Source of the DNA: Candidatus Cloacimonadota bacterium
GTDB taxonomy: Bacteria; Cloacimonadota; Cloacimonadia; G963667145
Assembly: GCA_963676615.1 (NCBI GenBank)
Contig: OY781092.1
Location: 973,745-1,037,744 of the forward strand
DNA length: 64,000 nucleotides
Direction of reading: 5' to 3'
Positions within the stretch are counted from its first letter, which is position 1. The number at the start of each line of letters is the position of its first letter. The notes beneath the pieces were generated by a model. The model worked only from the letters and a program-made list of their open reading frames with translations, did not search any database and was not told the DNA's origin. Positions 3,129 through 60,005 of the stretch are shown piece after piece. Position numbers and translations under genes: made by a program.

Positions 3129-3823
3129 AGCTCCAATCTGTATCCAACCGAGCGAACTCCCGATATTTTCAGAGATTTTAGCTTGCTCCGCAGCTTTGCA
3201 ATGTGCACATCCACCGTCCGATCACTCACGATTTTATCTTGCCCCCACACAAAATCCAAAATTTTCTCCCGCGAAAAAACCGCACCAATTTTGCTCGAAA
3301 GCAGCTTCAAAATCGAAAACTCGGCGAAAGTCAAAGCGACCGCTTCACCATTTTCCAAAACCAAATGCGCATCAAAATCGATGCGCACAGATTGTCCCAA
3401 ACTCCGCACTTTTTCCTGCGGTTTTTGCTCGTTTTTTTGTGAAAAATCCCGCTGACGACGCAAAAAGGCTCGCACCCTTGCCAGCAACTCCTTGGGATGA
3501 AAAGGCTTGGTAATATAGTCGTCTGCGCCAAGCTCCAGCCCAAGCACCTTGTCCGTGATGTCGCCTCTGGCAGTGAGCATCAGCACAAAAACCTGCGGAA
3601 AAGCTTTTTTCAAATCTTTGCAAATCTCAAGACCGTCTTTGCCAGGCAGCATCAAATCCAAAACCACCAAGTCTGGCAGCTGCGCTATCACAGCGTCCTC
3701 AAAATCCCGATAATCCGCAAAAGTCTGAAGCACAAAATTCGCATCGGCAAGGCTGGCGCGCACCAGCTCCAAAATATCTGGCTCATCGTCCAAAACATAA
3801 ATCAGCTTTTTCACTTTCGACAT
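3122..3823 (-). CDS. OmpR/PhoB-family response regulator with a winged-helix output domain
   Basis: The receiver domain carries conserved Asp residues (VLDDEPD ... LVVLDLMLPGKDG). The C-terminus is a trans_reg_C-like winged helix (RTVDVHIAKLRSKL). Confidence 0.85.
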   Translation of the reverse strand: MSKVKKLIYVLDDEPDILELVRASLADANFVLQTFADYRDFEDAVIAQLPDLVVLDLMLPGKDGLEICKDLKKAFPQVFVLMLTARGDITDKVLGLELGADDYITKPFHPKELLARVRAFLRRQRDFSQKNEQKPQEKVRSLGQSVRIDFDAHLVLENGEAVALTFAEFSILKLLSSKIGAVFSREKILDFVWGQDKIVSDRTVDVHIAKLRSKLKSLKISGVRSVGYRLELW

Positions 3824-46796: not shown

Positions 46797-47246
46797 TTAT
46801 TTTTGAACTCTCTCCACTTGCTCCAGCTGCCGAGCTGACCAATTATTTTTGCAAGCCTCTTCGATGTAATAAGTTCGCCTATCCTCGTCAACAATGCGTA
46901 TAAGCTGCTTGTATTGCGTCCAATTCAATTGCGCACGCACCTCGTGCGCAATTGGAAAAGCCTTATAAAACTGACGACTCATCTCCAGCTGACGAACGCT
47001 AAAACCGCTACCAAAATCTTTGCTCAATTCCGCAGAAAGATGCTTTATCAAAAAAGCGCCATACTCCGCTCTCTCCCGCTCATTCTGCTCCTGCACAAAA
47101 ATCTTTTGCCCAATCTTCCAATACATCATCACCCGCGCAAAATCGATAGCACGCACCGCCTTTTGCTGAGCATTCGAGATAATCGATTTTATCTCCTGAA
47201 CAAACCCAGACGAAAAATTTTTCCTCGTTTCAATCTCCATCGTCAA
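46797..47246 (-). CDS. DUF1016 (YhcG-like) N-terminal domain protein, apparently lacking the C-terminal PD-(D/E)xK nuclease domain
   Basis: It has AVRAIDFARVMMYWKIGQKI ... GFSVRQLEMSRQFY ... NWSARQLE, the YhcG N-terminal pattern. It is only 149 aa. Confidence 0.5.
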   Translation of the reverse strand: MTMEIETRKNFSSGFVQEIKSIISNAQQKAVRAIDFARVMMYWKIGQKIFVQEQNERERAEYGAFLIKHLSAELSKDFGSGFSVRQLEMSRQFYKAFPIAHEVRAQLNWTQYKQLIRIVDEDRRTYYIEEACKNNWSARQLEQVERVQK

Positions 47247-47255
47247 CTAAAAATT

Positions 47256-50200
47256 TTACACTCTCTCCACTTGCAAATAAATCTCAAGCCCGTTGATATC
47301 CCACTTTTGCATCCCCTGGCTAGAGTCCGCGCGCTCAAAACAGTCCGCCAAAGTCTCCTTTTTCAAATCCTCCAAATATCCAGCCAGCATCTGCGCCAAA
47401 TCCTCGCTGTAAAAATACCGCACCCGAATTCTATCCATCACCTGAAACCCAGAATTTTTCCGCGTAAACTGAATCTTGTTGATCAGCTCGCGGGCATACC
47501 CCTCGGCAATCAGCTCGTCCGACAGCTCCGTCTGCAGCGCCACAAAAAAATCGCCACCACTCTCCACCTGATAACCCACAAGGCTCTGAAGCTCCAGCGT
47601 CAAATCGTCCTTGTCCAGCCGATACTCTGCTTCCTCCAGCCGCACCGCAAAATCTTCGCCCTTGGCAAAAGCGCTCTGAATCGCCGCAACATCCGCCGAC
47701 TGCAAAAAATCTTGCAAAGCTTTCATCTGCTTGCCCACTTTCTTGCCCACATTCTTAAAATTCGGCTTAGCAAAATACGACACAAAATCTTCGTCCACAA
47801 AATCGACCTTTTTGATGTTAATCTCCTCCAAAATAAGCTCCTGCATCCCAGCAACCACGCTCTGCAACTTCTTGGGCAACTTAATTTGGGCAAGCGGCTG
47901 TCGCACCTTGAGCCCAGCATTATTCCGCGCAAATCGTCCCAGCGACACCACCTGAATGACCGTATCCATCTGCTTTTCCAGCTCCAAATCGATGGCAGCC
48001 AAATCACTCTTTGGAAAAGCCGCCAAATGCACCGACTCTTCGCCCGTGAGGCTACAATAAATATGATCCGCCAAAAACGGCGAAACTGGCGCAATCAGCT
48101 GCGTGAGCCGTGTCAAAACGGTCTGCAAAGTGTAATACGCATCCTTTTTATCATCGCTAAGCTCAAACGACCAAAACCGTTCCCGCGAGCGCCGAACATA
48201 CCAATTTGAAAGCTCCTCGCACGCAAAATTCTGAATCGCACGCACCGCCTTGGTCAAATCGTAGGCGTCCATCCGATCCTGCACATACGCAATCAAACCG
48301 TTGAGCTTGGAAAAAATCCAGCGGTCGATACTCGCGCTCACCTCCCGCGGCTTCTCGACTTTGTAACCGTCGATATTCGCATAAGTCGCAAAAAACGAAT
48401 AAACATTTTTGAGCGTGCCAAAAAATTTACCAGCCACCTCTTTCACGCCGCTAGCATCAAACTTCGTCGGCACCCACGGCGGACTGCCCGCCAAAAGATA
48501 CCACCGCACAGCGTCCGCTCCAAACTCGTCCATCACCTCAAACGGATTGACCGTGTTACCCTTGGACTTGCTCATCTTTTTGCCATTTTTATCCAAAATC
48601 AAATCGTTCACCAGCACATTTTTGTAAGGCGTTTGCCCTTTGATTATCGTCGAAATCGCCAGCAGAGAATAAAACCAGCCTCTTGTCTGGTCGATACCCT
48701 CACAAATAAAATCGGCAGGAAAAAGCTCGTCGAAATTTTCTTTGTTCTCAAACGGATAATGATGCTGGGCAAACGGCATCGCACCGCTGTCAAACCAGCA
48801 ATCTATCACCTGCGGCACTCGATGCATCACGCCGCCGCATTTTGGACACTCCAGCACAATATCGTCCACAAACGGCTTGTGCAACTCTGGATTTTCTGGC
48901 ACCGCAGAACCGTCGGAAGCCAGCCGTCCTTTCGCACGCAAATCAGCCTTTGAGCCGACACTTTCTTGAGCAGCACAATCATCGCAAACCCAAACATTCA
49001 GCGGAGTCCCCCAAAAACGATCCCGCGAAATCGCCCAATCCGTATTATTCTCCAGCCAAGAACCAAAACGCCCTTCGCCCACAAACGCAGGCGCCCAGTT
49101 GACCTTTTTATTCTCCGCAATCATTTTGTCTTTATAGTCGGTCGTCTTGATATACCAGCTCATCCGCGCGTAATACAAAAGCGGGCTATCGCAGCGCCAG
49201 CAGAAAGGATAGGAGTGTTTAAAACTCTCTTTCTTCAGAAACAAACCGCGCTCCTTGAGCGAAATCACGATCTGCTTCTCGACCTCCTTATCCTTGACAA
49301 AATATCCCTCCAACATCGGAAAATTCGCGTTATACTTGCCATCTTCGCCCACGGTATGCACCAGCGGAATGCCATTTTTTTTGCACACCTGATAATCGTC
49401 CTCACCATACATCCCCGCAGTATGCACAATCCCAGTTCCGTCCTCGGTCGTCACAAAATCGCCCGCGTAAATCTTATGCGAGTTCTCGTTCTGCAAACTC
49501 TCCACCGCAAAAAGCGGCTCGTACTCTTGCCCCAAAAGCGCATCGCCCTTGAACTCCTGCACGATTTTATACTCATCGTCCAGCACCTTCAGCAAATTTT
49601 TCGCCAAAATATAAAACTCGCCCTGGCACTCAACCTTCACATAATCGATCTGCGCTCCAACCACCAAAGCCACATTCCCCGCAAGCGTCCACGGCGTCGT
49701 CGTCCACGCCAAAAAATAGGTGTTCGCCTGATCTTTTTTGCGAAATTTGATAAAAACCGACGACTCGCTAACATCTTTATAACCAAGAGCCACCTCGTGC
49801 GAAGACAGCGGCGTCCCGCATTTCGGGCAAAACGGCACGACCTTGTGTCCCTGATACAAAAGCCCCTTTTCCCACATCTGCTGCAGTAGCCACCAAACCG
49901 ACTCTATATAATCGTTGTCCAGCGTGATATACGGATTGTCCAAATCGATTTCGTAGCCCATCTGCTGCGTCATCTTCCGCCACAACTTCTCGTAGCTAAA
50001 AACCGACTCGCGGCACTTTTGGTTAAACTCCTGCACGCCATAATCCAAAATCTTCTTCCGATCGTCCAACCCCAGCTGCTTCTGCACCTCAATCTCCACA
50101 GGCAAACCGTGCGTATCCCAGCCGGCCTTTCGCTTCACACGAAAACCCTGCATCGTCTTATATCGACACACCGTATCCTTGATCGAGCGCGCCATCACAT

Positions 50201-50366
50201 GATGAATTCCGGGCTTGCCGTTGGCAGTAGGAGGTCCCTCAAAAAAGATAAAATCTTCGCTTCCCTTGGCACTGCTCTTGCCCAAAATATCTATCTGCTC
50301 CCATTTTTTCGCCACTTCCGCCTCAATCCTAGCGCTCTTTTTTTTGGGATCAATCGGTTCATACAT
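47256..50366 (-). CDS. ileS: Isoleucine--tRNA ligase
   Basis: A 1036-aa protein with HIGH (PTANGKPGIHH) and KMSKS (KMSKSKGN) motifs, an editing domain and Zn-finger Cys residues. Confidence 0.9.
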   Translation of the reverse strand: MYEPIDPKKKSARIEAEVAKKWEQIDILGKSSAKGSEDFIFFEGPPTANGKPGIHHVMARSIKDTVCRYKTMQGFRVKRKAGWDTHGLPVEIEVQKQLGLDDRKKILDYGVQEFNQKCRESVFSYEKLWRKMTQQMGYEIDLDNPYITLDNDYIESVWWLLQQMWEKGLLYQGHKVVPFCPKCGTPLSSHEVALGYKDVSESSVFIKFRKKDQANTYFLAWTTTPWTLAGNVALVVGAQIDYVKVECQGEFYILAKNLLKVLDDEYKIVQEFKGDALLGQEYEPLFAVESLQNENSHKIYAGDFVTTEDGTGIVHTAGMYGEDDYQVCKKNGIPLVHTVGEDGKYNANFPMLEGYFVKDKEVEKQIVISLKERGLFLKKESFKHSYPFCWRCDSPLLYYARMSWYIKTTDYKDKMIAENKKVNWAPAFVGEGRFGSWLENNTDWAISRDRFWGTPLNVWVCDDCAAQESVGSKADLRAKGRLASDGSAVPENPELHKPFVDDIVLECPKCGGVMHRVPQVIDCWFDSGAMPFAQHHYPFENKENFDELFPADFICEGIDQTRGWFYSLLAISTIIKGQTPYKNVLVNDLILDKNGKKMSKSKGNTVNPFEVMDEFGADAVRWYLLAGSPPWVPTKFDASGVKEVAGKFFGTLKNVYSFFATYANIDGYKVEKPREVSASIDRWIFSKLNGLIAYVQDRMDAYDLTKAVRAIQNFACEELSNWYVRRSRERFWSFELSDDKKDAYYTLQTVLTRLTQLIAPVSPFLADHIYCSLTGEESVHLAAFPKSDLAAIDLELEKQMDTVIQVVSLGRFARNNAGLKVRQPLAQIKLPKKLQSVVAGMQELILEEINIKKVDFVDEDFVSYFAKPNFKNVGKKVGKQMKALQDFLQSADVAAIQSAFAKGEDFAVRLEEAEYRLDKDDLTLELQSLVGYQVESGGDFFVALQTELSDELIAEGYARELINKIQFTRKNSGFQVMDRIRVRYFYSEDLAQMLAGYLEDLKKETLADCFERADSSQGMQKWDINGLEIYLQVERV

Positions 50367-51272
50367 TGCAATCCTCCTGCTTTTCCAAACAAAATTTCTT
50401 CACATTAAAACTTTCGTCTCTTCATTTCTGTCAAGAGTTGTTTTGGCGCTACAAGAGAATTTCTCCCAAAAGCGTTACTTTTATTCAGCATTTTTTTATT
50501 GGTCTTGACACAAATAGAGAAATTTATCGAATTGGGAAAAGGTTAGAAAAGGGAATAAATGGACAAAATGTTGGATATAACACCAAATTGGAAGGCTAAA
50601 CGATATGTGGAGTTTGGTTAGTTGTGATAAAACATTTAAGGAGACTGACATAACTATGAATGGATTCCAAAGACCTGCACCAAAAACGAGAGATTCAATA
50701 AAAAATTTTTGCAAATCAATAGATTGTGAAGTTGGGGCACAAACAATTAATAGCATAATAGAATAATCAGACCTAATTTAGTGATTTTTGTGTCAAAATT
50801 TTCTTGGGACAAATTAAGGTGCAAAATTCCAAAATCAGAATTAAAGGTGAAATATGACTTTGTTTGTCATCCAGGAACAGGCGGTCTTTATTGGCATAAT
50901 AAGAATTATAATCACGGTGTGAAAAAATTTAAATCATTATATAGAAGAGAAAATAATAAAGCCCTCAAATAACATTTTGTATAAGTAATGGCAAGCAATG
51001 TGGTAAATATTAAGGCTTGTAGCCCGATCAAACTACGTAGCGGTTTAATAGGTTTGCTCTCCGAAATGCCAAACATTTCATATACTCACCGTTAGGCATA
51101 AGCTAAAAAAAACAGCGAATATAAAATATAAACTAAGAATTATTAAAAAAATCAATGCACAAACACACATTTAGTTTTGCCGACCAGAAAACCAAACCCT
51201 GAAAAACCCAAAGAGCTATTTTTTAGCCAGCGCACGAAAAATAATTATAAATTTGTAATTAAAGAGTTTAAA

Positions 51273-53465
51273 ATGAGTATAGAACAAGGAATTAATTCCA
51301 TACGAGAAAGTAATAAAAAGGTTGAAACTCAACAATGGTTTCAAAAACTTATTCAGACAGATGAATATGTTGGTGATTTGTATTCCATAAACTATGAAAC
51401 TGCGCGAGTAATAATTCATGACTTCTACAGAGAAAAAGTAGGAGGAATTCCAAGTTTGAGTTTCTTAATTGCTTCAAGAGTTGACCCAAATAATTCAGAA
51501 ATTGACTTTAAAACAGAGGATGCATCATTTATTCTTTTAAGAGTAATGGATGCAGCTGCACTTCCACAAGACAGAGAAGCTGAAAGAATTAGAGTTGAAA
51601 CAGCACAAAGAATAAGTGGTGAAACTGAAAAAAATTGGGATGAAGCAGGTTCAATGGATTTAAGAACAAAAAATCTGTTAAGTTTTGCTGGTGTGCAATG
51701 CAGAATAATCGGAACATTTTATCTCGAAGAAAATGGACAAAATGGAGAAGCACCACTTAATTTAAAATTCGGTAGTGACATTTCAAATTATTATCCAAAC
51801 AGAGGATTAAAAGTTTATAAACCAAATGGAAAGGCTCTTGAGTTAATTGTAAATTATTCTGACCCTTCAAATATTCAAGCACACATTGAAAAATATGGAA
51901 ATACAGAAAATGTAAAATTGGGTTTTGTAAGATATGCTTCAACAAATAGGAAATATCAGCAAATTGATGATGTCCCTGTTTATATTTATCCAGCAGACCT
52001 TCTATCTCAAAAATCTGCCTTGTTTGGAATGACAAGAACAGGGAAATCCAATACTACTAAAATAATTGCGAAATCTGTTTTTGAATTACGAAATGCACAA
52101 CAGTCTGGAGAAAAGCCATTAAGAATTGGGCAAATAATTTTTGACCCTAACGGTGAATATGCAAATGAAAACACACAGGATAAGGATGGCAGTGGAAATC
52201 CAAATGCACTCAAAAATATTTGGAAAAAAAACGAAACTTTAAAAAATGTAGCTGATAACTTAAAACAACAATATATCCAAGAGAAAGACATTGAAGATAA
52301 AAAAAGACTATGGAATGAAATTAAGACGTTGATTGATTCTGAAGTGGTTACTTTTGGTATTTTACCTCATCCAAATGATCCTGGCAGGAAGAGAATGCTA
52401 CTAAATTTCTATCTTGATGATAATTTACCTATTGGTAAAGAAATTATAAATTCTCTTTTGTCTGACGATACCACAATATATATAAAGAATTTTTTGCAGG
52501 TAAATTTGGAAAAACCTGACGAAAATGATAAGAGTGCAATGACAAGATATAAGAGAAGAGTTTTAGCATATCGTTCAGTTCTTGCACGAGCAGGTTTTCC
52601 TGTACCAGAAAAATTTAATGTTTCAGTAAAAAGTTTGTTTAATAAGGATTTATTGAATGCGATGGAAAATAGTAAAAGTGATAATTCGGTAGAATATAAA
52701 TCTGGGGCAAAAGTTTTTAAAGAAGAGAATCCTACTTTGCAACAATTAGCTGGTGCATTTGAATCACTTGATAAATTTATTCGCGAAAATAAAGAATACA
52801 AAATTTTTGAAACTGATTATGTTCAAAATTCAAAATCAGGTAATGCTTGGGCGGATGAGGATTTGAAAAAAATTATTGGGATTTTCCAATATCCAAATGG
52901 TACACGAAAAATTGGTAAAGCAGTAGAGCAACATAGTGCTGATACAACATGTGACTATGCAGATGATATTTATAATGATTTAAAAAACGGGAAACTTGTA
53001 ATTATTGATCAGTCAAGTGGAGATTCAGAGTTAAATGAGTCTTCAGCAAAAAGAGTGATGAAAAAAATATTTGATGAAAATAAAAATCTTTTTACATTGG
53101 GGAAAATTCCCCCCGATATAATGGTATATGTTGAAGAGGCACATAATATTTTACCATCTGATAAAGAAAAAGACTTAAAAGACATTTGGGTAAGAACAGC
53201 AAAAGAAGGAGCTAAATTGCATATAGGACTTGTTTACGCTACCCAAGAAGTAAGTAGTATTCAAAGAAATATTTTAAAAAATACAGCGAATTGGTTTATA
53301 AGCCATTTAAACAATACAGATGAAACCAAAGAACTCTGCAAGTACTATGACTTTGCAGACTTTGAACCGTCAATAAGGCGAGCACAGGATAAGGGCTTTT
53401 TAAGAGTTAAAACATTAAGCAATCTGTTTGTAATTCCTGTTCAAGTTGACAAATTTGAGGTTTAA
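51273..53465 (+). CDS. HerA/DUF87-family P-loop ATPase (FtsK-HerA superfamily)
   Basis: Walker A is FGMTRTGKSNTTK, followed by DPNGEY. Walker B is IMVYVEEAHNIL and the sensor motif is YATQEV. The N-terminal roughly 250 aa look like a HAS-barrel. The gene is very AT-rich. The start is chosen at MSIEQG (ATG 51273). Confidence 0.65.
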   Translation: MSIEQGINSIRESNKKVETQQWFQKLIQTDEYVGDLYSINYETARVIIHDFYREKVGGIPSLSFLIASRVDPNNSEIDFKTEDASFILLRVMDAAALPQDREAERIRVETAQRISGETEKNWDEAGSMDLRTKNLLSFAGVQCRIIGTFYLEENGQNGEAPLNLKFGSDISNYYPNRGLKVYKPNGKALELIVNYSDPSNIQAHIEKYGNTENVKLGFVRYASTNRKYQQIDDVPVYIYPADLLSQKSALFGMTRTGKSNTTKIIAKSVFELRNAQQSGEKPLRIGQIIFDPNGEYANENTQDKDGSGNPNALKNIWKKNETLKNVADNLKQQYIQEKDIEDKKRLWNEIKTLIDSEVVTFGILPHPNDPGRKRMLLNFYLDDNLPIGKEIINSLLSDDTTIYIKNFLQVNLEKPDENDKSAMTRYKRRVLAYRSVLARAGFPVPEKFNVSVKSLFNKDLLNAMENSKSDNSVEYKSGAKVFKEENPTLQQLAGAFESLDKFIRENKEYKIFETDYVQNSKSGNAWADEDLKKIIGIFQYPNGTRKIGKAVEQHSADTTCDYADDIYNDLKNGKLVIIDQSSGDSELNESSAKRVMKKIFDENKNLFTLGKIPPDIMVYVEEAHNILPSDKEKDLKDIWVRTAKEGAKLHIGLVYATQEVSSIQRNILKNTANWFISHLNNTDETKELCKYYDFADFEPSIRRAQDKGFLRVKTLSNLFVIPVQVDKFEV

Positions 53466-53476
53466 ACAGTATTTAT

Positions 53477-54865
53477 ATGGGATTTGAAGGAGAATTTGCC
53501 AGTTATGAGCCATTAAGGCGAATGCTTGATAGTGATAAAGTTAAATCACTCCAAGACAGACTGAAAATACGAAAACAAGAAGAAGAAACAGATACTTTTA
53601 CTGGCTCAATTGTTAAAAAGTCAGACTTGACTGAAAGTTCAATTCAACCAGATTTAGTTTTAGCTATTGATGGAAGTAATTTAGTGGCTAAAGCTGAAAA
53701 TGGTTTCCCAGGTGCAGAATTTGGTTATATTACAATAGCTTCTGTTTTAATAGATTTAAAGTTAATAGACAATTTAGAAAAGAAAAAGTTTATTGATCCA
53801 AAAAAAGTTAGAGAAACTGAAAAGGCATCAACAATAGAAAGTGTTTTTCCTGGGTGCAATGTAATATTAGATAACGAAAAAAATGCAAAAGCTTCAATTC
53901 GAAGAGCATTATTTGAAGAATTAAAAAGCAATACAATATTTGCGAATGGCGGAGAAACCTTATTGGGTACATACGAATATTTGTTCAGAATAAAGAGGGA
54001 ATATTTCTCCGAAATCCGCCTTCCAAGAAGCCCTATTGATGGTATTGATGATGAAATGACTTATGGATATGGTGAATATAATTGCCCTCATTCAGGAGAA
54101 AAACTATACTCAACTGATGCTTTGCGCTTACACGAATTAATGAATCCTGGTGGAACTAATGGAGAAATGTTTGGGCAAATAATGTCAACTCTTGAAAAAC
54201 TTTGGTTAGTTCACATACTTAGAGCCTTTGAACAAAAAAAATGGTTGTCAACACTTCGGAGAGTAGCATTTATTATGGATGGGCCATTAGCTGTATTTAG
54301 TACTTCATCATGGTTAACTAAAGTAATTAATTATGAATTAAATAGACTAAATGATTTGCAGAAAGCAGTTAACGGTCAGGATTTATTAATTATCGGTATT
54401 GAAAAATCAGGGACATTCGTAAATCATTTCGAGGAAATTGATACGACTAAAGATGGAGTTAGAGATAAATTCCCTAAACAATCAGCATTACTTCTTGATG
54501 ATGGATATATAAAAAGAAATATTATTTTTTCTGAAAGCATAAAACCATATGGTCAGGACACCTATTTTGGAAGGAAAATATTTTATAAAACTGCCTCTGG
54601 ACAAAAAATAGTTGCTGCAACTGCATTTTTGAGAAGCTTTTCTTCAGATAAAGAATTTTCCGAATATTTAGATTCTAGTAATCCTGTTAATTTTTCAAGA
54701 CTTCCAGATGTTATGAATTTACTTGATAAATTGGTTTCAAGTAGATACCCAAATTCCGTTTCACCTTTAGTATCAGCTCATGCAGAAGCAGCAATTCCTT
54801 TAAATTTAGGTAAACGTATATTTGAGGATATTGCAAGAGAAATAAGAGAAAATTCAAAACTATGA
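53477..54865 (+). CDS. NurA-like nuclease (RNase-H-like fold)
   Basis: It has LVLAIDGSNL near the N-terminus (catalytic-Asp motif) and later FIMDGPLAV. At 462 aa it lies immediately downstream of the HerA-like gene. Confidence 0.5.
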   Translation: MGFEGEFASYEPLRRMLDSDKVKSLQDRLKIRKQEEETDTFTGSIVKKSDLTESSIQPDLVLAIDGSNLVAKAENGFPGAEFGYITIASVLIDLKLIDNLEKKKFIDPKKVRETEKASTIESVFPGCNVILDNEKNAKASIRRALFEELKSNTIFANGGETLLGTYEYLFRIKREYFSEIRLPRSPIDGIDDEMTYGYGEYNCPHSGEKLYSTDALRLHELMNPGGTNGEMFGQIMSTLEKLWLVHILRAFEQKKWLSTLRRVAFIMDGPLAVFSTSSWLTKVINYELNRLNDLQKAVNGQDLLIIGIEKSGTFVNHFEEIDTTKDGVRDKFPKQSALLLDDGYIKRNIIFSESIKPYGQDTYFGRKIFYKTASGQKIVAATAFLRSFSSDKEFSEYLDSSNPVNFSRLPDVMNLLDKLVSSRYPNSVSPLVSAHAEAAIPLNLGKRIFEDIAREIRENSKL

Positions 54866-55989
54866 TAGTTTTAAATGATGTTTTAAAAGGGCGTAGTACT
54901 GCAGAAGCACGATGGGCAAGATTTGGTCCATATTATGCGATGTTTCCTGTAGATTTTGCTTTTGAAGTTGTTCAAAAATATTCAAAAGAGGGTGATTATA
55001 TAATAGATCCTTTTGCTGGAAGATGCAGTAGTATATATGCTGGGGGTGTTCTTGGTCGAGTTAGTTTAGGAATTGAAATTAATCCAGTTGGATGGCTTTT
55101 TGGAAAAGTAAAACTTCGACCTGCAAAAAAAGATCTTGTAATTGCAAGGTTGCTTGAGATTTATAAAAAAAGAGATTGTTATAGTTTAGCAATTGAAAAA
55201 ATGCTTGAATTTTATCGTATTTGTTATTGTGATGAGGTTTTAAAATTTTTATTAGCAGCAAGAGAAAATCTTGATTGGGAAAATAACAGTATTGATGCTT
55301 CCCTTATGTCTATTCTTTTGGTTTACTTACATGGTAAATTAGGAGAAGGCTTGTCAAATCAAATGAGAATGACAAAATCAATGGGAATGAACTATTCTGT
55401 TAAGTGGTGGAAGAAGAATGGTTTTATAAATCCGCCTGAAATTAATCCTTATGAATTTATTCTTAAGAAGATTGAATGGAGGTATGAAAAAGGTACACCA
55501 AGTATTACTGAAAGTGATGTTGTTTTTGGAGATAGCACTATTGAATTAAAAAAAATTGTCCAAAGAGCAGAGAGAAATAATATAAAATTTTCTTTACTTT
55601 TTACATCTCCGCCTTATTATTCAATTACGAATTATCATGCTGATCAATGGCTTAGAATATGGCTTTTAGGTGGGGCAGAAAATCCTCATTCATTTAATGC
55701 CAAATATAAAGGACGCTTTGGAAATAAACAAGAATATTATAATTTGCTTGATAGTGTATTTGGATATTCTTCTAAATTAATGGGGAAAGATAGTGCAATT
55801 TATGTTCGCACAGATAAAAGAGAATTTACTTTTAATTCAACTTTAGAAATATTAAAAAAACATTTTCCACATCATAAAATACAACTTATTGAAAAACCAC
55901 TGGATAATAATACTAAAACACAAACTAAATTATATGGAGATAAATCAATAAAGCCAGGGGAAGTAGATATAATATTGACAATAAAGTAA
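54862..55989 (+). CDS. DNA methyltransferase (N6-adenine / N4-cytosine type, SPPY motif)
   Basis: It has the SAM motif IIDPFAGRCSS and later the catalytic LLFTSPPYYSITNY. Its start overlaps the stop of the NurA-like gene (ATGA). Confidence 0.65.
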   Translation: MIVLNDVLKGRSTAEARWARFGPYYAMFPVDFAFEVVQKYSKEGDYIIDPFAGRCSSIYAGGVLGRVSLGIEINPVGWLFGKVKLRPAKKDLVIARLLEIYKKRDCYSLAIEKMLEFYRICYCDEVLKFLLAARENLDWENNSIDASLMSILLVYLHGKLGEGLSNQMRMTKSMGMNYSVKWWKKNGFINPPEINPYEFILKKIEWRYEKGTPSITESDVVFGDSTIELKKIVQRAERNNIKFSLLFTSPPYYSITNYHADQWLRIWLLGGAENPHSFNAKYKGRFGNKQEYYNLLDSVFGYSSKLMGKDSAIYVRTDKREFTFNSTLEILKKHFPHHKIQLIEKPLDNNTKTQTKLYGDKSIKPGEVDIILTIK

Positions 55990-56271
55990 AGTCAATGCTA
56001 AAGCCAATCACATTTGCAATTCACACAGACCACCTCTTGACCCAAAATTGCAAAAGAATATTTCTCACCAATGCACCGTAGAAAGTGAAAATAGTAGCAA
56101 ATTTGAAAGATAAAATGATTGCTCTAAAAGAAATTAGAAAAGGTTCAAGACAACATTACAAGTGTTAGACACAAGCTAGCTGTCTTGACCCAAAAAACCT
56201 TCTCTTCAATAAAAAAAGAGCCTCCAAAAAAATGAAGACTCTTTAAGTTTTTTAAGATTTTAAAATCAGCT

Positions 56272-57528
56272 CTATTTAATAAATTCAAGAAACGGCGAAA
56301 GAAACAGCAAAATACCAGTAAGAATTACAATAAACGGAACAACTCCACGATATTTCTTAAACCTATCCAACTTATACACAAGCAAAGTTGGGATAAAACA
56401 TCCAATTACAGCAAAAAATGGGCTGCATATACTCGTAAAATAAAGTATAGGGAAATTCGATAAAGCTGGAAGCCAAGCAATAATCACAATAAATATGATA
56501 ATGTAAATTGAGACTTTGCGCATATTGATCATATTTCTAGGGACTTTTCTGAAAAAAGTGTTAATAGTTATACCAGTACAAGCTTCATAAAATCCAAGCA
56601 TAACACCAAAAAAAGAAGTAACAACAGCACACAAATCAAGAGCAACACCCATTGATGGAATCGTTATTCCTGGTATTACTTCTGCCATAAGAGCAAGAAA
56701 TGAGGTATTGTCCTTAAAAGCCAATGCAGCTTCTGAATGGTCTATCGCCAATGTACACGAAAGAGCAAAAAAGAAAACAATGATAGCAAGAATAACAAAC
56801 GCAGTGTTCATTATCTTTAAAGACTTCAACCTAGCCATTTCTCTATCTTCATTCCGATTCTTAACCGAAAGAACCATTGGACTCAAAGACTGAAGAAAAA
56901 GTATGGAAGTCATCGCAAAAGGAAGAGTTATGATTACATTTTTCACTATTTCCCAAAACGACGGAAGCGCCATAATGTTCTTAATGTCCCAATATGGAAT
57001 TATCAAAAAACTCAGCACAATAAGAATTGCTAAAATGATAATGACAAGCACTTTAGAAATGTTTAACAACAATTTTCGACTTTTAAAAGCAAAAAATACA
57101 AGTAGTGAAATCAGCGCCAGAGAATACAAAGGATTATGATTAAGAAATCCCTTGGTCCAGCCAGCAGTATGAATATACGATGCGCTATCGTTTGTGATGG
57201 TCTCACTATAAATGAAAACCCATAGCAAAAGCATTATAAAGTAAATTATTCCCAACACAACACCCCATTTTTTCCCAAGATACTCCCCGATGATTGTTGG
57301 ATAATCGTCGGAAGAATCTGCCTCAGCCACGGTATTGACAAAAAGGCGTTGAAAAAGATACAAACCAGGATACGCAACCAATACTGTAATTAAAAATGTC
57401 CACAATCCGACCAAACCTGCCTGAATAGGCAAAAACACGATACCTGCCCCCACTCCCATTCCAATAGTTACCGCAACATAACCCCAATCCCAAGAGTCTA
57501 GCTTAACGATTTTTTTTTCATTTTTCAT
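56272..57528 (-). CDS. Amino-acid permease of the HAAAP type (aromatic amino acid/serine transporter-like)
   Basis: A 418-aa protein with about 11 TM helices and an N-terminal WDWGYVAVTIGMGVGAGIVFLP motif. The gene is AT-rich. Confidence 0.5.
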   Translation of the reverse strand: MKNEKKIVKLDSWDWGYVAVTIGMGVGAGIVFLPIQAGLVGLWTFLITVLVAYPGLYLFQRLFVNTVAEADSSDDYPTIIGEYLGKKWGVVLGIIYFIMLLLWVFIYSETITNDSASYIHTAGWTKGFLNHNPLYSLALISLLVFFAFKSRKLLLNISKVLVIIILAILIVLSFLIIPYWDIKNIMALPSFWEIVKNVIITLPFAMTSILFLQSLSPMVLSVKNRNEDREMARLKSLKIMNTAFVILAIIVFFFALSCTLAIDHSEAALAFKDNTSFLALMAEVIPGITIPSMGVALDLCAVVTSFFGVMLGFYEACTGITINTFFRKVPRNMINMRKVSIYIIIFIVIIAWLPALSNFPILYFTSICSPFFAVIGCFIPTLLVYKLDRFKKYRGVVPFIVILTGILLFLSPFLEFIK

Positions 57529-59390: not shown

Positions 59391-60005
59391 TTAAATATGA
59401 AATTTCTTGATTAAACCATCAAGGGCTTTATTCTGTTTTGTTGTCAATTCCCCTTTTTCAACATAATTTCTTTCCAAAGAAAGAACAAATTTACAATCAA
59501 ACCATTCATTGAATTTTACCCAATTTAAAATTTTATTAATTCTATACGGAACCGAAATATCCTCTCCACAAATAAAAATTAATACTTTTCTATTAATTTT
59601 CACCCTAAATTCAAGCTGTTTTTCAGTTAATTTTCTCTTTTTCAAAGTGTCAGAATAAAAGTTACATTCATACTTTGATAAAAACTTTTTTTCTTTAAGA
59701 TATTCTAGTATACTACTGCCAATACTTTTGTTTATATCTACTTTCACCCTTTCTGTTGCAGCCAAAATTTTAGTTCCAATATCAATATGCAAAAATTTAC
59801 TTACACAACAATTTCCCACCTCAGTTTGTTTATTATTTTTTACATTTTTTAACACACAAATATTTTTTATTGGATAATGTCCACAAAGACACTTTTTAGG
59901 GCTTCCACTCTTGTAAACAAAATCAAATTCCCACTCACTTTTAGCATTGTCCCAAATATTTGCTTCACTAATCTTTAAAATCTCTTCAAATAACTTATAT
60001 TCCAT
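59391..60005 (-). CDS. Hypothetical protein, AT-rich orphan with a CxCGH...GNCC motif
   Basis: A 204-aa ORF with about 30 % GC, unlike its neighbours. No family is recognised. Confidence 0.35.
   Translation of the reverse strand: MEYKLFEEILKISEANIWDNAKSEWEFDFVYKSGSPKKCLCGHYPIKNICVLKNVKNNKQTEVGNCCVSKFLHIDIGTKILAATERVKVDINKSIGSSILEYLKEKKFLSKYECNFYSDTLKKRKLTEKQLEFRVKINRKVLIFICGEDISVPYRINKILNWVKFNEWFDCKFVLSLERNYVEKGELTTKQNKALDGLIKKFHI

Follow-up and report, generated by a model that had tools for sequence, protein, structure and literature searches.

A three-gene cassette encoding a HerA-type ATPase, a NurA-fold nuclease and a DNA methyltransferase was located in DNA of a Candidatus Cloacimonadota bacterium (assembly GCA_963676615.1, contig OY781092.1, positions 973,745 to 1,037,744; this whole stretch of 64,000 nucleotides is called the window below). 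The cassette was probably (we put the chance at about 0.62) a horizontally mobile, methylation-coupled immune system that resembles TdpAB and acts in the manner of restriction-modification (R-M), a functional reading based on sequence, predicted structure and gene context. The preliminary description of this DNA, made from the letters without database searches, had proposed an uncharacterised R-M-like or anti-phage module; linkage, mobility and methyltransferase exchange, as read from related sequences, spoke for that proposal, and the TdpABC system provides a precedent. The open reading frames (ORFs) of the cassette were as follows.

51273..53465, plus strand: herA-like gene, ORF of 730 amino acids (aa)
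53477..54865, plus strand: nurA-like gene, ORF of 462 aa, 11 nt 3′ of the herA-like gene
54862..55989, plus strand: methyltransferase gene, ORF of 375 aa, its ATG overlapping the nurA-like stop by 4 nt

The three proteins of the cassette

The first protein matched Pfam DUF87/HerA (2.8e-12) and also the HerA models of PADLOC. A profile of its family hit TdpA (8wet_A) at 1.9e-31, over the ATPase core and a helical insertion, and next SIR2-HerA (1.1e-15) and archaeal HerA (7e-13). Its AlphaFold2 (AF2) model, with a predicted local distance difference test score (pLDDT) of 77, had six TdpA chains as best fold matches (TMt 0.68–0.72), above the HerA proteins of Thermococcus, Sulfolobus and Deinococcus and the SIR2-HerA and DUF4297-HerA complexes. 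Along its whole length the model could be aligned with structures of TdpA and HerA, and its N-terminal part (residues 30–185) was beta-rich. Walker A (GMTRTGKSN), Walker B (EEAH), R641 and the T657/Q658 sensor were invariant both in a family alignment that went down to 33 % identity and over 76–79 loci, and the features that define the HerA/FtsK clade, namely Walker A and B, an arginine finger, a glutamine sensor and an N-terminal beta-barrel, were found in the window ATPase. These profile and model matches supported a full-length, TdpA-like ATPase of the HerA type, in line with the FtsK/HerA-superfamily ATPase named in the preliminary description, and the identity of a conjugation or secretion ATPase was ruled out by them. 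Scores against the NCBIfam equivalogs of repair HerA were 36–44 bits (cut-offs 800–970) and against HerA_antiphage 31.5 bits (cut-off 800). A longer TTG start of the gene at 51177 was not kept in relatives. An insertion of ~30 Lys/Glu-rich residues (window 52281–52370, HerA residues ~337–366) was common only to the window and one other Cloacimonadota copy (L006), being missing in Acinetobacter, Campylobacterota and other copies.

The second protein matched Pfam NurA (2e-29). Searches of the PDB by sequence, with the single protein and with its family profile, found no NurA or TdpB, only zinc-finger noise from a Cys/His insertion, so that its kinship with TdpB and NurA structures emerged by fold alone. 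When its AF2 model (pLDDT 84.4; predicted template modelling score, pTM, 0.84) was compared by Foldseek, the top match was TdpB in the TdpAB-AMPPNP-DNA complex (8wfd_G, 3e-8), followed by NurA of Deinococcus, Sulfolobus, Pyrococcus, Thermotoga and Thermococcus. All ten significant matches (E ≤ 1e-3) were TdpB or NurA, which excluded a non-nuclease family for the middle gene. The motifs AIDGS (at D65) and MDGPLA (at D268) were present and conserved; D65, E240, D268, K310 and G312 were invariant down to 23–24 % identity, and H317 was invariant in an alignment of 12 sequences and at least 90 % conserved in one of 41. From sequence and model the middle gene is firmly predicted to encode a TdpB-like nuclease of the NurA (RNase H-like) fold, and the NurA-type protein with DGS/DG motifs of the preliminary description was thereby borne out.

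The Cys/His insertion of the nuclease lay at about residues 180–225, carried the motif TDALRLHE and resembled a C2H2 or treble-clef zinc finger. C203 never varied in the 12-sequence alignment and was at least 90 % conserved in that of 41; T213 and D214 were conserved, and H219 was invariant among the 12. Distant nuclease relatives had the full CxxC...CxxC, of which the first Cys pair was lost in the window subfamily. Judged from this pattern, the insertion is a candidate DNA- or mark-reading element. Another segment, a loop at window 54614–54682 (NurA residues 380–402), was wholly unlike that of all close relatives, including the 90 % identical Cloacimonadota copy, and was 7 aa longer; it mapped to a variable surface region, and a compensated frameshift as its source was checked and rejected.

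The third protein matched Pfam N6_N4_Mtase (PF01555, 2.8e-9), PADLOC MTase_II (6.5e-17, residues 25–270) and PDB 2zie (1.8e-5). Its motif order was permuted, with motif I DPFAGRCSS (49–57) followed by a middle region of ~190 aa, presumably the target recognition domain, and then by motif IV TSPPY (248–252). Across related loci TSPPY was found in 99/99 and DPFAGRxSS in 96/99 sequences. In amino-methyltransferases SPPY suggests N4-cytosine methylation, and, going by TSPPY, the window enzyme probably modifies N4-cytosine. The SPPY methyltransferase starting within the nurA-like stop, as it had been read from the letters, thus held in the Pfam and PADLOC matches, the motif and the 4-nt overlap. 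What was found is the generic arrangement of R-M, a methyltransferase with conserved motifs strictly linked to a nuclease gene. All three genes were under purifying selection: ratios of non-synonymous to synonymous substitution rates (dN/dS), computed against four relatives, were 0.07–0.27 overall, with 0.07–0.27 for the ATPase, 0.10–0.14 for the nuclease and 0.11–0.23 for the methyltransferase.

Conservation, mobility and methyltransferase exchange

The close subfamily of the nuclease comprised at least 1,855 proteins in a protein collection clustered at 90 %, and the closest 120 relatives, from Bacteroidota and Acinetobacter, were 75–89 % identical. Among the first 21 loci fetched, all 20 with enough sequence contained the triad in the same gene order. 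Hosts of triad loci were Cloacimonadota, Bacteroidota, Ignavibacteriota, Campylobacterota, a Treponema metagenome-assembled genome (Spirochaetota) and Acinetobacter (Gammaproteobacteria). From the side of the methyltransferase, an anchored search brought up 230 metagenome relatives, and 80 of them were kept; in loci with room for them, NurA was immediately upstream in 65/65 and HerA was present in 54/55. These counts answered the question, raised in the preliminary description, whether the triad is conserved as a unit elsewhere. In the lone HerA exception (L100, 905–8917), a Type I/IIG methylase-endonuclease and an S subunit had taken the place of herA and of half of nurA (the 5′ half), leaving an intact methyltransferase that was followed by a DUF6088-AbiEii toxin-antitoxin pair. 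A methyltransferase outlasting HerA and NurA in this way is the decay pattern typical of R-M.

The cassette had a GC content of 0.31–0.39 irrespective of that of its flanks (0.32–0.51), and it was found in unrelated contexts. In Acinetobacter it was cargo of a Tn7-like element at glmS, and in Pontibacter it lay in an integrase island splitting a Mg-chelatase/comM-like gene. In Flectobacillus and in the window it stood alone among housekeeping genes. Neighbours across the close subfamily, surveyed qualitatively and with no background model, included integrases, other R-M genes (Type III among them), AbiEii, dGTPase and PADLOC candidate systems, and also many housekeeping genes. These results indicated that the triad is a conserved and horizontally mobile unit; the horizontal acquisition suggested in the preliminary description agreed with the foreign GC, the unrelated contexts and the patchy hosts.

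More distant HerA-NurA pairs (24–39 % identity) occurred on plasmids, proviruses and chromosomes of haloarchaea, Asgard archaea, Deferribacter, Vibrio, Binataceae and others, their contexts including a prophage int-xis locus and a site beside haloarchaeal provirus genes. A methyltransferase was directly beside the DUF87-NurA pair in 11 of 14 informative loci, upstream or downstream of it. In Halorarius, Deferribacter and Natranaeroarchaeum this was a homologous PF01555 enzyme with the same permuted motif order. The remaining ones, among them a Vibrio prophage, Helarchaeota and Binataceae, had a Dam-like enzyme of PF02086 in which no similarity could be detected. Haloarchaeal and window proteins had diverged to a comparable degree (methyltransferase 25 % identity, E 8e-17; NurA 27 %; HerA 33 %). 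A constant HerA-NurA pair with methyltransferases that either co-diverged or were swapped is as expected of a restriction module with its modification partner.

A methyltransferase-free subclade was found on plasmids of Tolypothrix, Nostoc and Calothrix (L023, L117 and L118), where the order was XRE-DUF87-NurA and the neighbours were AbiTii, NERD or exonuclease-STAND genes. On the Deferribacter plasmid pDF308 (L024, 2994–6792) the order was methyltransferase-herA-nurA, with herA split by an IS200/IS605 tnpA-tnpB insertion; herA also occupied two ORFs in L025, the Vibrio prophage, and in L028.

Proposed mechanism, known systems and alternative explanations

The closest solved relatives of the window ATPase and nuclease belong to TdpABC, a modification-based R-M system with tdpC for modification and tdpAB for restriction (PMC12914056). 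Its structures are PDB 8wet, 8wfd and 8y1k. The phosphorothioate mark on self DNA is said to block TdpAB (reportedly by An et al. in 2025, in Nat Chem Biol). Both systems have three genes, of which two adjacent ones encode the restricting pair, in TdpABC the HerA-type hexameric ATPase TdpA and the NurA-fold nuclease TdpB, and the third writes the self mark. They differ in that the third gene of the window encodes a PF01555 methyltransferase (PF02086 in other clades) instead of the phosphorothioate-forming TdpC; sequence identity was ~14–16 %, and the window nuclease was ~100 aa longer, with the Cys/His insertion, and the window ATPase ~150 aa longer. TdpABC comes from thermophiles, whereas window-type hosts are mesophilic Bacteroidota, Cloacimonadota and others, and a base mark, lying in the major groove, would have to be sensed by another mechanism than a backbone sulfur. 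No TdpC gene was present, the conserved unit holding no gene besides the three, and the window cassette is therefore not a Tdp system.

In the HerA-NurA complexes already known, a dimer of NurA is bound by a hexamer of HerA, and ATP drives DNA into the nuclease sites. By this model, the window methyltransferase would mark host DNA, and the HerA-type ATPase would assemble, like its counterparts in the HerA-NurA and TdpAB structures, into a hexameric ring that holds a dimer of NurA. Fuelled by ATP hydrolysis, the ring would pull DNA in and pass it to the RNase-H-fold sites, unmarked phage or plasmid DNA being degraded processively, and methylated sites would, by analogy with TdpAB, stall or exclude the motor-nuclease. 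The mark might be read by the Cys/His insertion of NurA, by a helical insertion of ~250 residues in the ATPase (300–560), or by the methyltransferase acting as specificity subunit. Speculatively, the overlap of nurA and methyltransferase genes and the missing controller protein would fit a nuclease that requires ends of DNA and would do no harm to an unbroken circular chromosome while the cassette is becoming established.

Among known systems the cassette would be most like TdpABC in its working. Archaeal and Deinococcus HerA-NurA resembled the cassette in the HerA hexamer fold with its N-terminal beta-barrel, in the RNase-H-like fold and acidic residues of NurA and in gene adjacency; unlike them, the cassette was mobile, patchy, methyltransferase-linked and without mre11-rad50 linkage, and its nuclease had no detectable sequence match to solved NurA. 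SIR2-HerA (Nezha) and DUF4297-HerA likewise combine a HerA ATPase with an effector in a compact mobile defence operon, but the window effector was NurA, and those systems lack a modification gene and work through abortive infection; with NurA as the HerA neighbour and an NCBIfam score far under the cut-off, both were rejected. With classical and ATP-dependent R-M systems (Type II, Type I/III, CglI/NgoAVII-type) the cassette shared strict methyltransferase-nuclease linkage, exchangeable modification modules, mobility and a decay that leaves the methyltransferase behind. It differed from them in having a ring-driven RNase-H-fold NurA, not a PD-(D/E)XK, HNH or phospholipase D (PLD) endonuclease with a superfamily 2 (SF2) motor, and no recognisable specificity subunit.

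BREX, DISARM and MADS were rejected, as the unit has three genes only and PADLOC gave no brx, pgl or drm match, only a partial match of the ATPase to mad8 (5.8e-14). The hidden Markov model and defence-profile searches suggested in the preliminary description thus gave significant Pfam matches for all three proteins (DUF87/HerA, NurA and N6_N4_Mtase) and assigned no known system, and the cassette was not a fragment of BREX or DISARM or of the core of an integrative conjugative element (ICE), no ICE core being found in the window. With PADLOC-DB 2023, nothing was obtained for NurA, and the other matches were generic HerA and MTase_II and the partial mad8. The full-text literature that was searched described no HerA-NurA-methyltransferase defence system, though an earlier mention in subscription papers is possible.

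The preliminary description had known of no HerA-NurA pair coupled to a DNA methyltransferase in one operon. For defence systems this stood in the literature searched, but as to the operon there is a precedent, the tdtA operon of Thermus thermophilus ICEth1, which contains Tth111II, the NurA-like TTC1878, TdtA (TTC1879) and the PF01555 methylase TTC1880 (PMC5365140). Knock-outs of its nurA-like gene and of tdtA abolish or strongly reduce DNA donation (PMC5365140). The likeness, matched by domain content only, is that one operon of a mobile element combines the three domain types. The ICEth1 operon differs in its order (nurA-herA-methyltransferase), in the Type IIG enzyme in front, in belonging to an ICE that has an integrase and, at a tRNA gene, att repeats of 47 bp, and in its experimentally assigned role, DNA donation.

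On this model the window cassette might serve a mobile element by processing and exporting DNA, the NurA-like protein and TdtA cutting donor DNA and pumping it from the cell (‘transjugation’) and the methylase being accessory. The need for such an operon in donation (PMC5365140) and the high mobility of the window-type cassette are in its favour, but we held it quite unlikely: integrase, att repeats, a Tth111II-type enzyme and transfer genes were not constant partners in the window or nearly all relatives, the closest solved homologues of ATPase and nuclease form the defence complex TdpAB, and methyltransferase family exchange and strict linkage would be left unexplained. A methylation-independent defence, in which HerA and NurA act by abortive infection or as a nuclease and the methyltransferase protects the DNA of the element from restriction by the host or by neighbouring systems or regulates epigenetically, was judged unlikely. 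HerA does pair with diverse effectors in proven systems (PDB matches SIR2-HerA and DUF4297-HerA), and the cyanobacterial subclade beside AbiTii, NERD and STAND genes does without a methyltransferase. Against this stood the near-obligate linkage counted from the methyltransferase side (65/65 and 54/55) and the NurA side (20/20 assessable), the overlap of the nurA stop with the methyltransferase start, the divergence of the PF01555 methyltransferase between Bacteria and Archaea, which kept pace with that of HerA and NurA, and the other clades that swapped in a different DNA methyltransferase rather than losing one.

Post-segregational killing is known for Type II R-M systems, and a selfish addiction module that persists mainly by such killing, with little benefit against phages, would suit a compact, widely transferred cassette often placed among housekeeping genes with no other defence genes nearby (the window, L004, L120). 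As an account of the cassette in place of defence we considered it improbable, given the copies in prophage accessory loci and defence islands; the two roles are compatible and coexist in classical R-M, and sequence alone cannot separate them. It is very improbable that the pair serves housekeeping end resection at double-strand breaks with the methyltransferase adjacent by coincidence. Relatives are annotated by NCBI as ‘DNA double-strand break repair nuclease NurA’ and the fold is common to repair complexes, yet mre11 and rad50 were absent from the window and from every related locus examined, copies at 75–90 % identity were scattered over at least six phyla with a GC foreign to the host, the scores for repair HerA were far below the cut-offs, and the linkage counts for NurA and HerA (65/65 and 54/55) are not those of coincidence.

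The TdpAB-like immune system was preferred. The closest folds, TdpA and TdpB, are the restriction half of an R-M system, which supports restriction, and the insertion contexts in mobile elements, in prophages and beside defence genes support an immune role. Several points weigh on the other side. Many insertion sites, that of the window included, lay among housekeeping genes, and PADLOC-DB 2023 has no model for the nuclease, which is thus not validated as a defence gene. The cyanobacterial subclade indicated that a HerA-NurA pair can run independently of methylation. One conserved motor-nuclease would have to read marks as unlike as those of the N4-methylcytosine (m4C) and Dam types, made by unrelated methyltransferases, and the sole experimentally studied operon with the three domains, that of ICEth1, is linked to DNA donation and not to defence (PMC5365140).

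It is possible, if doubtful, that the cassette represents a large unnamed class of methylation-coupled HerA-NurA immune systems in Bacteria, Archaea (Asgard archaea and haloarchaea) and proviruses, in which a ring translocase would feed DNA to an RNase-H-fold nuclease, with methyl marks from interchangeable methyltransferases (m4C-type or Dam-type) as stop or exclusion signals. Such a class would follow R-M logic without a site-specific endonuclease, nearer to RecBCD/Chi than to EcoRI, and this would explain why no controller of delayed expression is needed on entering a new circular chromosome. The methylation-coupled immune system, if confirmed, would add a widespread family (in the close subfamily alone at least 1,855 NurA-type proteins at 90 % clustering, and 230 methyltransferase-anchored metagenome matches) to modification-dependent defence, and the TdpAB-type motor-nuclease would be a general restriction chassis for varied DNA marks, not a thermophile curiosity bound to phosphorothioation; after Tdp, methylation-coupled HerA/NurA restriction would be a natural extension rather than a shock. 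The cassette bears on what HerA-NurA pairs do in bacteria, a matter of debate, and on the ‘transjugation’ operon of Thermus, and it offers a compact three-gene system of 4.9 kb for studying how a ring translocase senses base methylation. Annotation would also improve, because NCBI labels such genes as double-strand-break repair nucleases.

Flanking elements and genomic surroundings

A pair of related non-coding elements of ~90 nt flanked the cassette in direct orientation. They were detected by cross-locus comparison alone and were described by a sequence model (R1) of 13 copies. A candidate promoter box lay between the left element and herA.

51149..51237, plus strand: left ~90-nt element (R1, 58 bits, E 1.9e-16)
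51248..51255, plus strand: candidate −7 promoter box TAAATTTG, of the Bacteroidota type TAnnTTTG, 17 nt before the herA ATG
55994..56078, plus strand: right ~90-nt element, directly 3′ of the methyltransferase stop (R1, 48.9 bits, E 1.4e-13)

The elements were conserved at both cassette ends in L007–L013 and L016, and were also seen in L021; the left one was kept just upstream of herA in L007–L013 and L016 despite unrelated outer DNA. In some ten loci ~120 bp 5′ and 88 bp 3′ of the genes were conserved and similarity ended beyond. As the similarity ended at the paired elements, the transferred unit was taken to be ~51149–56078 (4.93 kb).

The layout of the element was GCCAACGCAC...CACATTTG-stem-C/A-rich loop-stem-CAAAAGAG...GCCAACGCAC. 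The stems varied between left and right and among loci, yet stayed complementary. The right element had a 9-bp stem (TTTGCAATT/AATTGCAAA), and when loci were compared 4 of its 9 pairs showed compensatory changes, from few independent lineages. Folding of the window copies was weak (z = −0.16 for the left and −1.68 for the right). No Rfam match was obtained, no further convincing copy was found in the 64-kb window, where only 3229–3279 gave a partial match (9.6 bits, E 0.25), and a repeat search for terminal repeats or target-site duplications gave nothing convincing. The consistent RYYYAAC...GTTRRRY signature of integron attC sites was not seen by eye in the copies. The element may serve in recombination or mobilisation, as a site for either, or form a structure of the 5′/3′ untranslated region (UTR); a subterminal hairpin like that of IS200/IS605 is one idea.

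A 44-nt segment at window 50970–51013, ~260 bp upstream of herA, was 84 % identical to L013 5064–5107, a copy that sits just 3′ of the right flanking element. This placement indicated that flanking pieces are in a different order in the two loci, as would be the case with circular permutation or a cassette array.

The promoter box was conserved as (A)TAAATTTG in L007 and L009–L011. It was called a candidate −7 box because of TAnnTTTG, the consensus of Bacteroides promoters; a sigma-70 promoter scan showed no enrichment.

The genes beside the cassette were as follows.

47256..50366, minus strand: ileS, divergent from the cassette, GC 0.49–0.51
46797–47246, minus strand: ORF of 149 aa beside ileS, its match limited to the DUF1016 N-terminal domain (YhcG-type nuclease family, 5.2e-38)
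56272–57528, minus strand, convergent: permease of 418 aa, weak Trp_Tyr_perm match (3.7e-6)
59391–60005, minus strand: Cys-rich ORF of 204 aa in a second small low-GC islet (0.26–0.30), no Pfam match

GC was 0.27–0.34 in each 500-nt window from ~50500 to ~56500 and ~31 % over the cassette genes (51273–55989), against 0.49–0.51 in ileS. The three packed, co-oriented, low-GC genes beside an ileS of ~50 % GC were thus as first described. The island drawn at 50400–56270 in the preliminary description was correct in its low GC, but low GC extended to ~57700 across the convergent permease gene, so that the compositional island is larger than those coordinates, and the conserved mobile unit was smaller than it. 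The window belongs to a metagenome-assembled contig of 1.57 Mb. The identical island with its flanks was present in an independent assembly (L033), which ruled out an assembly artefact. In an 18-kb contig (L032, ENA ERZ25074360 ctg22551) the island formed a perfect inverted duplication, most likely a long-read assembly chimera rather than biology. Between 46000 and 60000 the window contained neither an integrase nor a Type IIG enzyme, and no tRNA gene adjoined the cassette.

The permease gene had a GC of 0.33–0.38, against 0.50–0.54 past 57750, and its own hairpin terminator at 56215–56244. Since other loci did not have it beside the cassette, it may have been acquired separately or be simply an AT-rich membrane-protein gene. 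The 149-aa DUF1016 ORF appears to be without the C-terminal nuclease domain. The 204-aa Cys-rich ORF was flanked by tsaB-like and cytidine-deaminase-like genes.

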